Shown in pieces: positions 43,667 to 47,898 of a stretch of 64,000 nt of DNA. Origin of the DNA: Escherichia coli (GTDB lineage Bacteria > Pseudomonadota > Gammaproteobacteria > Enterobacterales > Enterobacteriaceae); the NCBI RefSeq assembly GCF_003334385.1, contig NZ_QOWN01000004.1. One strand, 5' to 3'. Each line of letters starts with the position of its first letter. The stretch's first letter is position 1. The notes below the pieces were generated by a model. The model saw only the letters and a list, made by a program, of their open reading frames with translations, ran no database searches and was not told the origin of the DNA. The translations under genes were made by a program, and so were the position numbers.

Positions 43667-43751
43667 GCCGAAGTGGCGAAATCGGTAGACGCAGTTGATT
43701 CAAAATCAACCGTAGAAATACGTGCCGGTTCGAGTCCGGCCTTCGGCACCA
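43667..43751 (+). tRNA. leuX: tRNA-Leu (anticodon CAA)
   Basis: 85-nt sequence gccgaagtggcgaaatcggtagac...ggttcgagtccggccttcggcacca with anticodon loop ttgattCAAaatcaa and encoded CCA. Confidence 0.95.
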
Positions 43752-43937: not shown

Positions 43938-45182
43938 ATGGCTCTAACAGATATCAAAGTCAGAACAGCTAAGCCAACAGATAAGCAATACAAGTTAACT
44001 GATGGCAGTGGTATGCATCTTCTTGTCCACCCTAATGGTTCTAAGTACTGGCGTTTGCAGTACCGTTTTGACGGCAAGCAAAAGATGCTGGCTTTAGGTG
44101 TTTATCCTGACGTGTCGCTTGCCGATGCACGGACTCGCCGTGACGACGCTCGTAATTTGTTGGCAAACAACATCGACCCGGGAGACAAAAAGAAAAGTGA
44201 TAAAATTGAGCAAGAAGAAGCCCGCACTTTTGAACAACTCGCAGTTGAGTGGCATGCAACAAATAAAAAGTGGTCGGAAGAACATAGCAGGCGAGTACTG
44301 AAAAGCCTGGAGGATAATCTGTTTCCAGCTATTGGTAAGCGGAATATTGCGGATCTCAAAACCCGAGACCTGCTAGCCCCAATCAAAGCCGTTGAACTGT
44401 CAGGACGGCTTGAGGTTGCTTCACGATTACAACAGCGAACCACGGCAATTATGCGCTATGCCGTGCAGAGTGGTTTACTGGACTATAACCCCGCGCAGGA
44501 GATGGTTGGCGCTGTTGCTTCAAGTAACAGACAGCATCGACCTGCTCTTCAGTTGAAGCGAATCCCAGAACTATTACGGCGCATAGATAGTTATACCGGT
44601 AGACCTCTTACTAGACTTGCCGTCGAACTCACGCTCCTGGTATTCATTCGTTCAAGTGAACTACGCTTTGCTCGTTGGTCTGAGATCGATTTCGAAACAT
44701 CAATGTGGACAATACCTGCAGAGCGCGAAGCTATTGACGGAGTAAAGCATTCACAGCGTGGTTCAAAAATGCGTACGCCTCATCTGGTGCCGCTTTCTCA
44801 TCAAGCTTTAGCAATTCTTAAAGATGTTTACAAACTTAGTGGTGATCGCGATTTTGTTTTCATCGGCGATCATGACCATCGCAAACCGATGAGTGAAAAC
44901 ACGGTGAACAAGGCGCTGCGCGTTATGGGTTATGACACGAAGGTAGAGGTTTGTGGGCACGGTTTCAGGACAATGGCCTGTAGTTCATTGATCGAGTCTG
45001 GATTGTGGTCGAGGGATGCAGTGGAAAGGCAGATGAGCCATATGGAACGTAACTCAGTACGCGCAGCTTACATTCATAAGGCCGAACATCTTGATGAACG
45101 GCGACTGATGCTGCAGTGGTGGGCTGATTTTTTGGATGCGAATAGGGAAAGCGAAGTTAGCCCTTATGACTTTGGCAAATAG
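43938..45182 (+). CDS. P4-type tyrosine integrase
   Basis: 414-aa ORF with C-terminal tyrosine-recombinase motifs (HGFRTMACS, RAAYIHK); good RBS gggagggg; adjacent to the tRNA 3' end. Confidence 0.9.
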   Translation: MALTDIKVRTAKPTDKQYKLTDGSGMHLLVHPNGSKYWRLQYRFDGKQKMLALGVYPDVSLADARTRRDDARNLLANNIDPGDKKKSDKIEQEEARTFEQLAVEWHATNKKWSEEHSRRVLKSLEDNLFPAIGKRNIADLKTRDLLAPIKAVELSGRLEVASRLQQRTTAIMRYAVQSGLLDYNPAQEMVGAVASSNRQHRPALQLKRIPELLRRIDSYTGRPLTRLAVELTLLVFIRSSELRFARWSEIDFETSMWTIPAEREAIDGVKHSQRGSKMRTPHLVPLSHQALAILKDVYKLSGDRDFVFIGDHDHRKPMSENTVNKALRVMGYDTKVEVCGHGFRTMACSSLIESGLWSRDAVERQMSHMERNSVRAAYIHKAEHLDERRLMLQWWADFLDANRESEVSPYDFGK

Positions 45183-45284
45183 TCTAATTCCTGATGCTTG
45201 CTATGTTCGATTTTGAAAAGCCGGCTTGAACTATAACCTATACTTTTTTATAACTGTATTATTCTGGCGACTCAGAGGTGCACT

Positions 45285-45518
45285 ATGAAAACTTTCGATA
45301 CTCAACTTGCGATGAGCATTGTATCGCACTCAACGGGAGGTTTTAGTTATGACACCCTAGCTAGAGCGTTGATTTCTAAAGATAAAAATGAAAATCCTGA
45401 CGACCTTCTTGAGTCGTGTCGAAATTTTTGTCTCTCTCTTGAGGAAAAAGGTATTCTGAGGCGATGCCAAAGATGTTCTCATTCTCAAGATGAGTATTTC
45501 GAGTATATTCCTCACTAA
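45285..45518 (+). CDS. Hypothetical small protein (77 aa) with CxxC pair
   Basis: AT-rich ORF with RBS (cagagg) and RRCQRCSHS near the C-terminus; followed by a perfect palindrome; no recognisable family. Confidence 0.4.
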   Translation: MKTFDTQLAMSIVSHSTGGFSYDTLARALISKDKNENPDDLLESCRNFCLSLEEKGILRRCQRCSHSQDEYFEYIPH

Positions 45519-45519
45519 C

Positions 45520-45551
45520 ATCAGTCCCTGAAAAAATTTTCAGGGACTGAT
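45520..45551. terminator. Perfect 14-bp-arm palindrome (possible bidirectional terminator or protein binding site)
   Basis: atcagtccctgaaaa-aa-ttttcagggactgat immediately after the 77-aa ORF stop. Confidence 0.5.
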
Positions 45552-45617
45552 TACTCCGCTCTTGTCATCCCCTTTTTTCTCCTGTAGCTTGTGTAACACG
45601 ATTCTGGGGGGGCGATT

Positions 45618-46574
45618 GTGAGCAACATCAACTTAATAACCACATGTACAAACGGCAAACACTACGGTAGTAGGGATATATTGAGTCTGAGTCAATTTTC
45701 ATCAGGCCGAACCCCTTCAAATGTGCTCGTGAATTCTTGGTGCAATGCTCTGAATGAAGCTATTTCTACATCTGCAACTATATGTGCAGAGGATCTTTAT
45801 AAAGGTGGGCACTGGGCGACGGCTAAAGCCATCTTAGATGATTATCCTATTGATTTATGGATTCTTTCTGCTGGTTTAGGACTCCTTCACCACAAAGACA
45901 ATGTTGTACCTTATAAAGCGACCTTTGCTGTTGGATATGACGAATCAATACCATTATATTCTCAAGAATATGTAGGGAAAAGTTTTCATAGAACATGGTG
46001 GAAAGAAATAACCAATAGATCTATTTTTAAATCTAAGCATCCTACATCTATTGTAGAATTAATGAAAAAAAGAAAAAGAGACTATTATATTATCTGTGGT
46101 TCTCCAGATTATATTAATGCAATTGAACTAGATATCATTAATGGTCTTGAGTATCTAGTTGATGCAAAAAAACAACTGCTTATTATAACTTCCAAAAAAA
46201 TCAATGGTAGGTTAACTACATACCTTTTCAAAACCAACCAAAATATGGCTCAGTGGCTGAGATGCAATATGCTCATGCTTAATATCAGTGTGGCAAAATA
46301 CATTGTGAAGGAATTTACGTCAAAACAACTCAATGATTTAAATGAGTTATCTCAAAAGTTAATAGAAGAACTCAAGGAGTTACCTGAGCGTGAAGTGAAA
46401 AAAGGAATTCGTCGTAGTCCGGAGGAAGTTAAGTCTTTCATTTTAAAGATTATGGAGAAAAATCCTGGTATCAGTGCTACACACGCGTTGCGTGAATTTC
46501 GTGACTCGGGAAATTCATTTGAGGAAAAACGTTTTCGGACTGAGTTTATGGCCCTGAGAGAGGCTAAACCTTAA
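45618..46574 (+). CDS. Hypothetical protein (318 aa), first gene of the putative modification module; possibly DpdC-like by context only
   Basis: AT-rich ORF with GTG start and G-rich RBS; no motif I can assign; sits directly upstream of the TGT-like gene. Confidence 0.5.
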   Translation: MSNINLITTCTNGKHYGSRDILSLSQFSSGRTPSNVLVNSWCNALNEAISTSATICAEDLYKGGHWATAKAILDDYPIDLWILSAGLGLLHHKDNVVPYKATFAVGYDESIPLYSQEYVGKSFHRTWWKEITNRSIFKSKHPTSIVELMKKRKRDYYIICGSPDYINAIELDIINGLEYLVDAKKQLLIITSKKINGRLTTYLFKTNQNMAQWLRCNMLMLNISVAKYIVKEFTSKQLNDLNELSQKLIEELKELPEREVKKGIRRSPEEVKSFILKIMEKNPGISATHALREFRDSGNSFEEKRFRTEFMALREAKP

Positions 46575-46626: not shown

Positions 46627-47898
46627 GTGGCGTCACAGGAGAGTAAGTTGTCGAAGCTAAAGTATTTTTTCCCTGATAGTCAGGATTTTATCGATCCCAG
46701 TTTCGACTTCTTCCGCGAAACGCGTAACGAACATCGCGTGCGTCAACGTGACGATCAGTATCCGCATGAGGTTTTTCCTCATCCTTACGATGGTATGCTG
46801 GTTTCTAAAGCTGTAGTTGATGGTCTTGGCGGCGGCGAGAGCAAATATACTCGTGCCCAGCGTTTGCGTTACTTCCGTAATGGAATGAAGCACTTTTTCC
46901 GTCTGCCGGAAAATATGGAAACTATGGGTGATTGCGGAGCCTTCACATATGTTAATCAGGACGTCCCGCCATACCGTGTGGAAGAGGTGATTGAGTTTTA
47001 CGAAACTTCCCGCTTTAACCATGGCGTTTCTCTCGATCATATCGTTTTTGGCTATGAAAAACCTGGTGAGGTATTCAGTGGCGAAGTGTTGGCTGAATGT
47101 CGCCGACGCCAGGATATCACTCTGACCTTGGCTCAAGAGTTTTTAAACAAGTCTCAAAAGTCCTGTTTCACTCCCTTTGGCGTTGCACATGGATGGAGCA
47201 AAACCTCCTATCGTCAGTCTGTAGAGGCCCTGCTGGCCATGGGATACAGAAATATCACCATGGGGGGGATGGTGCCGTTGAAAACGGCGCAGATCCTTGA
47301 GACTCTCGAAGAGATTAAACCGCTGCTGAAAAGTGATACACGTATTCACTTGCTTGGCATTGCCCGTCCAGAGAGTTTCGCCGACTTTATCAAGTTTGGT
47401 GTGACCAGTATTGACTCGACAACACCGCTGCAGCAAGCCTTCAAAGATCGGAAAAACAACTATCATACGCCTGATGGCCCGGCCTATACCGCTGTGCGTG
47501 TCCCTCAGTTTGATGCGAATCCAAGTTTGAGTCGCAAAATAAAATCTGGCGTGATTGATCAGGATATTGCACGACATCTAGAAAAGGATGCCATGGCTGC
47601 CCTGTTTGAATATGATAAAGGGGCTTTGTCACTTGAGAAGACTCTTGATGCAGTCCTGGCATATGAACGCCTCCATTCGGGTGAAAAAGAGGCCGATAAA
47701 ATCCGTGCGGATTATGAACGTACGCTAGGAGAACGTCCTTGGAACCAATGCCAGTGCAATATTTGCCAGGCCATCGGTATCAACGTCATCATTTTCCGCG
47801 GAGCAGAACGTAACCGTCGCCGCGGTTTCCATAATATTCAGGTGTTGTACAACCGTTTACAGCACACATTGTCATTACGCTCAGAGGAACTGTCATGA
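46627..47898 (+). CDS. dpdA: tRNA-guanine-transglycosylase-like protein (DpdA-like DNA 7-deazaguanine transglycosylase candidate)
   Basis: 423-aa ORF, GTG start with gagg RBS; C-terminal zinc motif CQCNIC followed 22 residues later by His (TGT-type CxCxxC...H); DCGAF and DSTTP segments. Confidence 0.65.
   Translation: MASQESKLSKLKYFFPDSQDFIDPSFDFFRETRNEHRVRQRDDQYPHEVFPHPYDGMLVSKAVVDGLGGGESKYTRAQRLRYFRNGMKHFFRLPENMETMGDCGAFTYVNQDVPPYRVEEVIEFYETSRFNHGVSLDHIVFGYEKPGEVFSGEVLAECRRRQDITLTLAQEFLNKSQKSCFTPFGVAHGWSKTSYRQSVEALLAMGYRNITMGGMVPLKTAQILETLEEIKPLLKSDTRIHLLGIARPESFADFIKFGVTSIDSTTPLQQAFKDRKNNYHTPDGPAYTAVRVPQFDANPSLSRKIKSGVIDQDIARHLEKDAMAALFEYDKGALSLEKTLDAVLAYERLHSGEKEADKIRADYERTLGERPWNQCQCNICQAIGINVIIFRGAERNRRRGFHNIQVLYNRLQHTLSLRSEELS

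Follow-up and report, generated by a model that had tools for sequence, protein, structure and literature searches.

A conserved small gene for a predicted winged-helix protein, followed by a predicted hairpin, heads the dpdCAB modification module of enterobacterial Dpd islands

The 7-deazaguanine system Dpd is, to our knowledge, the largest restriction-modification system known. Dpd islands at the leuX hotspot have already been described (PMC5699537, PMC10164549, PMC12707154), and Salmonella Montevideo and other bearers of dpdA-dpdK share with the Escherichia coli locus analysed here the leuX island type and the gene order dpdC-dpdA-dpdB followed by dpdE-F-G-H-I (PMC5699537, PMC12707154). DpdA, DpdB, and DpdC alone were shown to reconstitute modification in vitro (PMC10164549). 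The locus differs from these descriptions in a 77-codon gene that is not among the named genes dpdA-dpdK and is recognised by no existing Dpd model (PADLOC DpdA-K, NCBIfam). We found no mention of this gene in the dpd literature searched, the original 2016 PNAS description lying outside that search, and no account in the same literature of how Dpd expression is controlled or how the system is safely established after horizontal transfer. The novelty lies not in the island, which is known, but in an unnamed family of conserved genes linked to dpd clusters and in a layout of two promoter-like elements and a hairpin.

The closest functional analogy for the 77-aa protein is provided by the C proteins (C.PvuII, C.BamHI, C.Esp1396I), with which it shares a length of ~80 aa, an HTH-type fold, residence in a mobile restriction-modification system, the lack of an enzymatic domain, and an apparent promoter of its own at the start of one of the system's operons; the likely purpose, expression control after transfer, would be alike as well (PMC12707154). 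However, C proteins are all-alpha proteins of the Xre/HTH_3 type, whereas the 77-aa protein is a predicted winged helix (three helices and a beta wing) without a match to HTH_3. C proteins bind C-boxes upstream of their own promoters, whereas the 77-aa gene has no conserved dyad upstream of its promoter-like element, P1, and C genes precede the restriction gene, whereas the 77-aa gene precedes the modification genes dpdC-dpdA-dpdB. It therefore departs from the C proteins in all three respects tested (fold, C-boxes, and position before a restriction gene).

The DNA-binding domains of the Fur/PerR, BlaI/MecI, MarR, and PadR regulators share the topology H1-b1-H2-H3-b2-wing-b3 with the 77-aa protein, and the "..LA..L" of helix 2 and the "LE..G.L" at the end of helix 3 of winged-helix regulators are readable in its sequence. 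It differs from them in lacking a dimerisation or sensor domain, in being acidic, and in an identity of 10-21%; a search of the PDB sequence profiles found no sequence-level relative with a solved structure. The palindrome that follows the gene resembles terminators and the stem-loops that stabilise intercistronic or 3' ends in being a stable, GC-cored hairpin right past a stop codon, with compensatory changes. Unlike intrinsic terminators, which are defined by a U-tract, it has none. REP, BIME, and MITE elements are present in many copies per genome, whereas this palindrome is found only with the island and in a single copy, and so it is not a dispersed repeat.

The window, as we call the whole stretch of 64,000 nt of E. 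coli chromosome that was analysed, holds a leuX island with a Dpd restriction-modification system. The genes and structures that matter here are as follows.

43667-43751: tRNA-Leu(CAA) gene, leuX.
43938-45182: P4-type tyrosine integrase gene, after leuX.
45285-45518, plus strand: gene of the 77-aa predicted winged-helix protein, first gene of the enterobacterial dpdCAB module; RefSeq WP_001621104.1 where annotated.
45520-45551, plus strand: perfect palindrome, predicted RNA stem-loop, beginning 1 nt past the stop codon of the 77-aa gene.
45618-46574, plus strand: dpdC (DUF6884), 318 aa from GTG; PADLOC DpdC PDLC02818, residues 1-317, E 1e-159.
46627-47898, plus strand: dpdA, DNA-guanine transglycosylase; NCBIfam NF041059 DpdA, 580 bits.
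47895-49028, plus strand: dpdB, DGQHR/ParB-like ATPase; NCBIfam NF041060 DpdB, 474 bits.
49039-49067: canonical intrinsic terminator just 3' of dpdB; stem CCCTTTG/CAAAGGG and T-run, tail score 3.81.

The gene order is the 77-aa gene, the palindrome, dpdC, dpdA, dpdB, and then dpdE, F, G, H, and I. The restriction genes dpdE-I begin at 49345, beyond the terminator that follows dpdB, a structure that is kept in six loci and divides the modification operon from dpdE-I. The preliminary description had called the small reading frame AT-rich, and the region indeed has a GC content of 0.41-0.42 vs ~0.53-0.55 in the chromosome on either side. Of 5426 complete E. coli genomes, 160 carry a 435-bp segment with the ORF and the palindrome, chromosomal every time, as three alleles (100%, 96.8%, and ~94.6% identity).

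Some features of the island farther downstream deserve mention in their own right. At 49028-49345 dpdB passes straight to dpdE, the place at which a reverse-strand dpdD stands in Brenneria (L008), Escherichia sp. (L019), and locus L020. A CRP-consensus-like dyad, TGTGATCGCTGTCAC, lies at 49184-49198, ~150 nt upstream of dpdE; taken alone the dyad is weak, at least one match occurring in 34 of 100 shuffles, and it is also present in Klebsiella (L003) and E. kobei (L018; TGTGATCAAGATCAC and TGTGACCGAGATCAC), so that the restriction operon may be under catabolite control. The mechanically called dpdI frame (58794-59630) overlaps dpdH by 116 nt and the PADLOC DpdI model begins at its residue 35; judging from this, the true dpdI start probably lies near 58896.

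The 77-codon ORF, on the plus strand exactly where it had been placed, is a genuine, conserved gene. Its start codon is ATG, GAGG precedes this by 6 nt, and the sequence includes ILRRCQRCSHSQ. The homology search that the preliminary description had called for returned 68 relatives among 5.8 billion proteins, nearly all of exactly 77 aa and with 52-99% identity, from Escherichia, Salmonella, Kluyvera, Enterobacter, Klebsiella, Serratia, Pantoea, Pectobacterium, Brenneria, Rahnella, Morganella, and Providencia, and so established a genuine small protein. Start codon, GAGG ribosome-binding site, and length are all conserved, the length being constant in more than 50 orthologues. The dN/dS ratio against the window copy was 0.05-0.20 (20 loci), the pairwise ratio had a median of 0.13 (114 informative pairs), and variable sites at codon positions 1, 2, and 3 numbered 47, 41, and 71. 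The family is small, with only 17 representatives at E <= 1e-3 among 1.84 billion cluster representatives. No family was found for it in Pfam (even at E <= 10), NCBIfam, PADLOC, PHROG, or the PDB sequence profiles; a match to the NCBIfam entry NOV3GF23 was due to chance (19.5 bits vs a cut-off of 165), and PDB profile matches to TPR and BTK were likewise discarded. In RefSeq it appears as a "hypothetical protein" (WP_001621104.1) in about one-third of the identical E. coli copies listed and is unannotated in the others. Phages yielded no copy of it and plasmids a single one, so that it is not a phage or plasmid gene.

An AlphaFold2 model built on a 57-sequence alignment (pLDDT 82.1) has the topology H1-b1-H2-H3-b2-wing-b3, with helices at residues 6-15, 22-30, and 38-55 and strands at 19-21, 58-61, and 71-74. 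Foldseek matched this model in the PDB to the DNA-binding domains of Fur, PerR, Zur, BlaI/MecI, MarR-like, and PadR proteins with TM scores of 0.66-0.79 on the query (e.g., Fur 4rb3, E 1e-3, TM 0.73; PerR 4i7h, TM 0.78; BlaI 1p6r, TM 0.66), and in AFDB50 to members of its own family followed by generic winged helices (Fur, BlaI, HARE-HTH, H15). On the strength of the model, the protein is a winged helix and a member of the winged-helix (wHTH) superfamily, for which nucleic-acid binding is plausible. The invariant residues are S16, G18, F20, S21, T24, L25, A26, R27, L42, C45, F48, C49, L52, and G56, and conservation extends to R27, R46, R59, and R60, basic residues carried by H2, H3, and the wing. 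The two invariant cysteines, C45 and C49, lie on the hydrophobic face of helix 3, and judging from their place in its i, i+3, i+4, i+7 spacing they are probably core residues. The CxxC motif that had been noticed near the C-terminus is not conserved: Rahnella-type proteins have L in place of C64, and other proteins have N or Y in place of C61, so that we reject a zinc or redox motif. By sequence count the protein is acidic (12 D/E vs 9 K/R). The predicted recognition helix exposes a variable and in part acidic face, an unusual feature for a sequence-specific repressor.

The gene keeps company with dpd genes in every enterobacterial locus compared. In 17 of 17 loci it is followed, after ~77-103 nt, by dpdC-dpdA-dpdB, whereas the upstream neighbours change: a P4-type integrase, an integrase of another family, carotenoid genes, IS elements, or a divergent dpdE; in a Klebsiella locus without an integrase it adjoins a carbonic anhydrase gene. 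The more remote relatives that a search of 1.84 billion proteins returned (E 2e-14 to 7e-6) lie near queC/queD/queE and dpd genes in other orders: P0072 upstream of dpdCAB, P0076 between queE-queD-queC and dpdB-dpdA-dpdC, P0078 (Shewanella algae) immediately after queD-queC and before dpdD, and P0079 next to queE/queC. The linkage to dpd and preQ0 genes was also seen in L022, L023/24, L025/26, and L030, beyond the 17 enterobacterial loci. Since dpdCAB is constant downstream, the upstream side changes, and distant relatives sit in dpd/preQ0 clusters, the gene belongs to Dpd and not to the integrase; what had been described as an element in the gap between integrase and modification genes is, by its synteny in the 17 loci, part of the dpd modification module. 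Among the distant loci, the homologous small gene in L025 (5991-6001) is packed 10 nt behind queC, and that in L023 (6229-6260) is monocistronic with a classical bidirectional terminator (AAACGGGGCTTAGCCCCGTTTTTT), an arrangement consistent with a self-contained transcription unit. The transcriptional wiring of the small gene thus differs by lineage, and the preQ0/dpd linkage is kept.

Two promoter-like elements, which we call P1 and P2, flank the gene and its palindrome, and each is accompanied by a ribosome-binding site.

45226-45231, plus strand: P1 -35-like hexamer TTGAAC of the 77-aa gene; CTTG(A/C)A kept in 16 of 17 loci.
45249-45254, plus strand: P1 -10-like hexamer TATAAC, 17 nt after the -35 and with a T-run before it; TTTTTTATAA(C/A) in 16 of 17 loci.
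45275-45278, plus strand: Shine-Dalgarno GAGG of the 77-aa gene; in the alignment, GAGG/GGGG is conserved 5-7 nt ahead of the ATG.
45562-45567, plus strand: P2 -35-like hexamer TTGTCA (TTGCAA in most other genera); CTTG..A invariant in 17 loci.
45585-45590, plus strand: P2 -10-like hexamer TAGCTT, shared by 16 of 17 loci and L022 with a constant spacing of 17 nt.
45606-45612, plus strand: G-run Shine-Dalgarno of dpdC; conserved purine-rich block 5-6 nt before the conserved GTG.

The P1 block is the sole conserved block 5' of the 77-aa gene in the 17 loci, the sequence farther upstream being unalignable between contexts, and we infer that it is a sigma-70-like promoter of the gene's own; a consensus promoter scan missed its -10 because position 6 of the hexamer is not T. 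No conserved dyad fit to be an operator was found at P1 among the 17 aligned upstream regions. The -35 of P2 follows the end of the stem by 10 nt. In the distant locus L022, TTGCAA-17-TAGCTT is kept around an unrelated spacer, as expected of a promoter more than of an RNA element, and P2 (45562-45590) is likely a separate promoter of dpdC. A dyad GTAGC-TTT-GCTAC over the -10/+1 region of P2 (equivalent to 45584-45598) is perfect in five loci only (L008, L014, L016, L017, and L019), imperfect at the same place in L018 (10-12-bp arms), and absent from the E. coli-type P2; where it occurs, it may serve as an operator.

RNAalifold found no consensus structure in the P2/dpdC leader of the 17 loci, and an Rfam search of 45100-45800 at E <= 10 returned sub-threshold noise alone (rli38, mir-3167, snoRNAs), so that a preQ1 riboswitch is not supported there. 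In a single-sequence fold, UCCCCUU (45568-45574, in the P2 spacer) pairs with the G-run of the dpdC Shine-Dalgarno (45606-45612); this pairing was predicted in the transcript reading through from P1, and only transcripts initiated at P2 would then have a free ribosome-binding site, but RNAalifold over the 17 loci did not support it. RefSeq/PGAP starts dpdC at the ATG at 45723 (283 aa), whereas the earlier GTG at 45618 gives 318 aa. Because the PADLOC match begins at residue 1 and VSNINLITTC... is kept in 17 loci, the RefSeq start looks 35 codons short.

The palindrome stands immediately after the ORF, as had been described, and is a perfect inverted repeat with DNA arms of 15 nt (45520-45534 and 45537-45551), 100% complementary across a 2-nt gap; the arm length of 14 bp given previously matches the RNA form, a stem of 14 bp with a 4-nt loop. 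Its predicted folding energy is -22.3 kcal/mol vs -7.3 +/- 2.3 in shuffles (z = -6.6; 0 of 200 as good). The 24-nt core occurs at one site in the window and had no match in 100 window shuffles, and among the 5426 E. coli genomes the palindrome was found only in 159 island-bearing ones, once each, the two places reported per genome being the two strands of one palindrome. A strong hairpin (-15 to -25 kcal/mol) stands 1-8 nt past the stop codon in 11 or 12 of the 17 loci. In L003, L017, L018, L019, and L020, which retain the protein and P2, it is weak, replaced, or deleted, so that whatever the hairpin does is dispensable.

Where the hairpin is present, its pairing is under selection. In a 15-sequence alignment of the 11 inner pairs, 91.3% of cells were paired vs 79.5 +/- 1.8 in shuffled alignments (0 of 500 as high), seven of the 11 pairs were altered on both sides, the covariation score was 0.449 vs 0.239, and controls with a slid register were 30-62% paired. 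Compensated stems are seen in E. coli (ATCAGTCCCTG/CAGGGACTGAT), L010 (ATCCGTCCCTG/CAGGGACGGAT), Pantoea (AAGACCCTAG/CTAGGGTCTT), and Rahnella (CTCATCCCTGA/TCAGGGATGAG), and the stem is identical among the three E. coli alleles, whose loops differ. Wobble pairs mildly favour the plus strand (11 G.U vs 4 A.C, with one row out of register). Because the arms change beside proteins that are at least 90% identical and the distance between the cores varies by 1 nt, selection acts on the pairing and not on a sequence read by a protein; judging from these alignments, the stem-loop is kept for base pairing, not for its sequence. The 15-nt tail after the E. coli stem, TACTCCGCTCTTGTC, scores 1.27 on a d'Aubenton-Carafa-type T-tail measure, and the tails of the 17 loci score 0.1-2.6, against a background that averages 0.96 and has its 95th percentile at 2.8; the tail of the dpdB terminator scores 3.81 here and 2.65-5.36 in other loci. 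A terminator scan did not call the stem-loop. Judging from a stem without a U-tract, it is most likely a hairpin that protects a 3' end; more broadly, its effect on RNA is most likely 3'-end protection or insulation.

These data allow the readings of the two elements to be weighed. A reading in which the ORF is open only by chance within a non-coding leader, or in which the palindrome is a dispersed repeat of the REP/MITE kind, would agree with PGAP skipping the ORF in about two-thirds of the identical E. coli copies listed and with the lack of any Pfam, NCBIfam, PADLOC, or PHROG match, but the purifying selection and fixed length across genera and the confident predicted fold speak for a protein, and the single copy per island genome speaks against a repeat. 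Both ideas are refuted by the homologue set, the dN/dS values, and the copy number, and we give them practically no credence; the earlier suggestion of a non-coding element mistaken for an ORF falls with them. An operator was also among the earlier suggestions; bound by the 77-aa protein or by another island protein (e.g., DpdB), it would activate or repress P2. Such an operator would suit the perfect dyad symmetry, the predicted winged-helix fold encoded next door, a core CCCTGA...TCAGGG kept in 12 of 17 loci, and the position of the centre (45535.5), ~61-62 bp upstream of the predicted P2 start, which is a classical place for an activator. However, in Pantoea L011 the arms are AAGACCCTAGG.../...CTAGGGTCTT and yet the protein is 92% identical, with helix 3 differing by one residue; L010, L011, and L013 all have compensatory arm changes beside a near-identical protein; the core-to-core distance is 9 or 10 nt; the palindrome is absent or degenerate in five of the 17 loci with protein and P2 retained; G.U-type "pairs" in L013, L015, and L020 are meaningful only in RNA; and each island has a single copy. 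We consider an operator distinctly improbable. The terminator that the preliminary description offered beside it fared better in part: the stem is very stable and stands directly past the stop codon, the homologous gene in L023 closes with a textbook terminator, and some genera have a moderately T-rich tail (e.g., Rahnella, TTATGTGTTTCTT), but the U-tract is absent, with a tail (TACTCCGCTCTTGTC) at 1.27 close to the background mean and far from the 3.81 of the dpdB terminator, no locus of the 17 scores above 2.6, and the scan reported nothing. Efficient and complete intrinsic termination of the small gene's transcript by the stem-loop, which would leave dpdCAB to P2 alone, is therefore unlikely in our view.

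The arrangement that we favour, with somewhat better than even confidence, is that P1 serves the winged-helix gene, that the hairpin marks the 3' end of its message, that dpdC has the separate promoter P2, and that the protein acts in trans on Dpd. In this arrangement, P1 (~45226-45254) would drive a short message for the 77-aa stand-alone winged-helix protein; the stem-loop at the 3' end of that message would protect and delimit it, attenuate read-through weakly at most, and act as an insulator that separates it from dpdC-dpdA-dpdB, which would be expressed mainly from P2. The protein would then influence Dpd expression in trans, whether as a regulator or as an accessory factor, in the manner of the controller proteins of other restriction-modification systems. 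It is probably a regulator or an accessory factor of Dpd, and as DpdA, DpdB, and DpdC suffice in vitro, it is not required for the chemistry and stands outside the catalytic core. The earlier idea of a small regulator of the island accordingly keeps some ground, since a genuine protein, a predicted winged helix, and a promoter-like element make such a role plausible, but the CxxC motif and the operator that went with it do not stand. The acidic charge and variable helix 3 face keep an accessory factor in play alongside a classical repressor. Specifically, the protein might be no transcription factor at all but an accessory subunit that binds protein or nucleic acid within the Dpd/preQ0 machinery, such as an adaptor for DpdA/B/C or a modified-DNA reader. 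The net negative charge would agree with this, as would the finding that surface conservation is highest in the b1-H2 segment STGGFSYDTLARAL and not on the exposed face of helix 3, the co-occurrence of the family with preQ0 synthesis genes and dpdCAB in differing gene orders, and the winged helices other than transcription factors that Foldseek also finds (HARE-HTH, LOTUS, H15, cohesin WHD). Reconstitution by DpdA/B/C without it (PMC10164549) weighs against such a subunit, as do the conserved R27, R46, R59, and R60 on H2, H3, and the wing, and a promoter-like element of its own, a hairpin, and a second promoter that set it apart from the enzymes in Enterobacterales, a layout typical of a regulator. 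We regard the subunit as a tentative alternative of limited probability.

The favoured arrangement, a winged-helix gene on P1 with dpdCAB on P2, bears on how Dpd may be controlled. The 77-aa gene is conserved, under purifying selection, and tied to dpd, and it was overlooked in most E. coli copies by PGAP and altogether by the family libraries, which makes it the first candidate for Dpd control. More speculatively, and with considerable doubt, it could be an overlooked twelfth component of gammaproteobacterial Dpd, a controller that sets how strongly or when dpdCAB is expressed as the island arrives in a new host, possibly also acting on preQ0 synthesis and restriction and possibly sensing preQ0 or DNA modification, with the hairpin-bounded two-promoter layout as part of the device. 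Its kind is ordinary, a small winged-helix gene with a 3' hairpin, but it is an overlooked and well-conserved companion of a poorly understood defence system. Even if the protein were only a minor accessory factor, the annotation of these islands would be put right by a real gene and a corrected start of dpdC.
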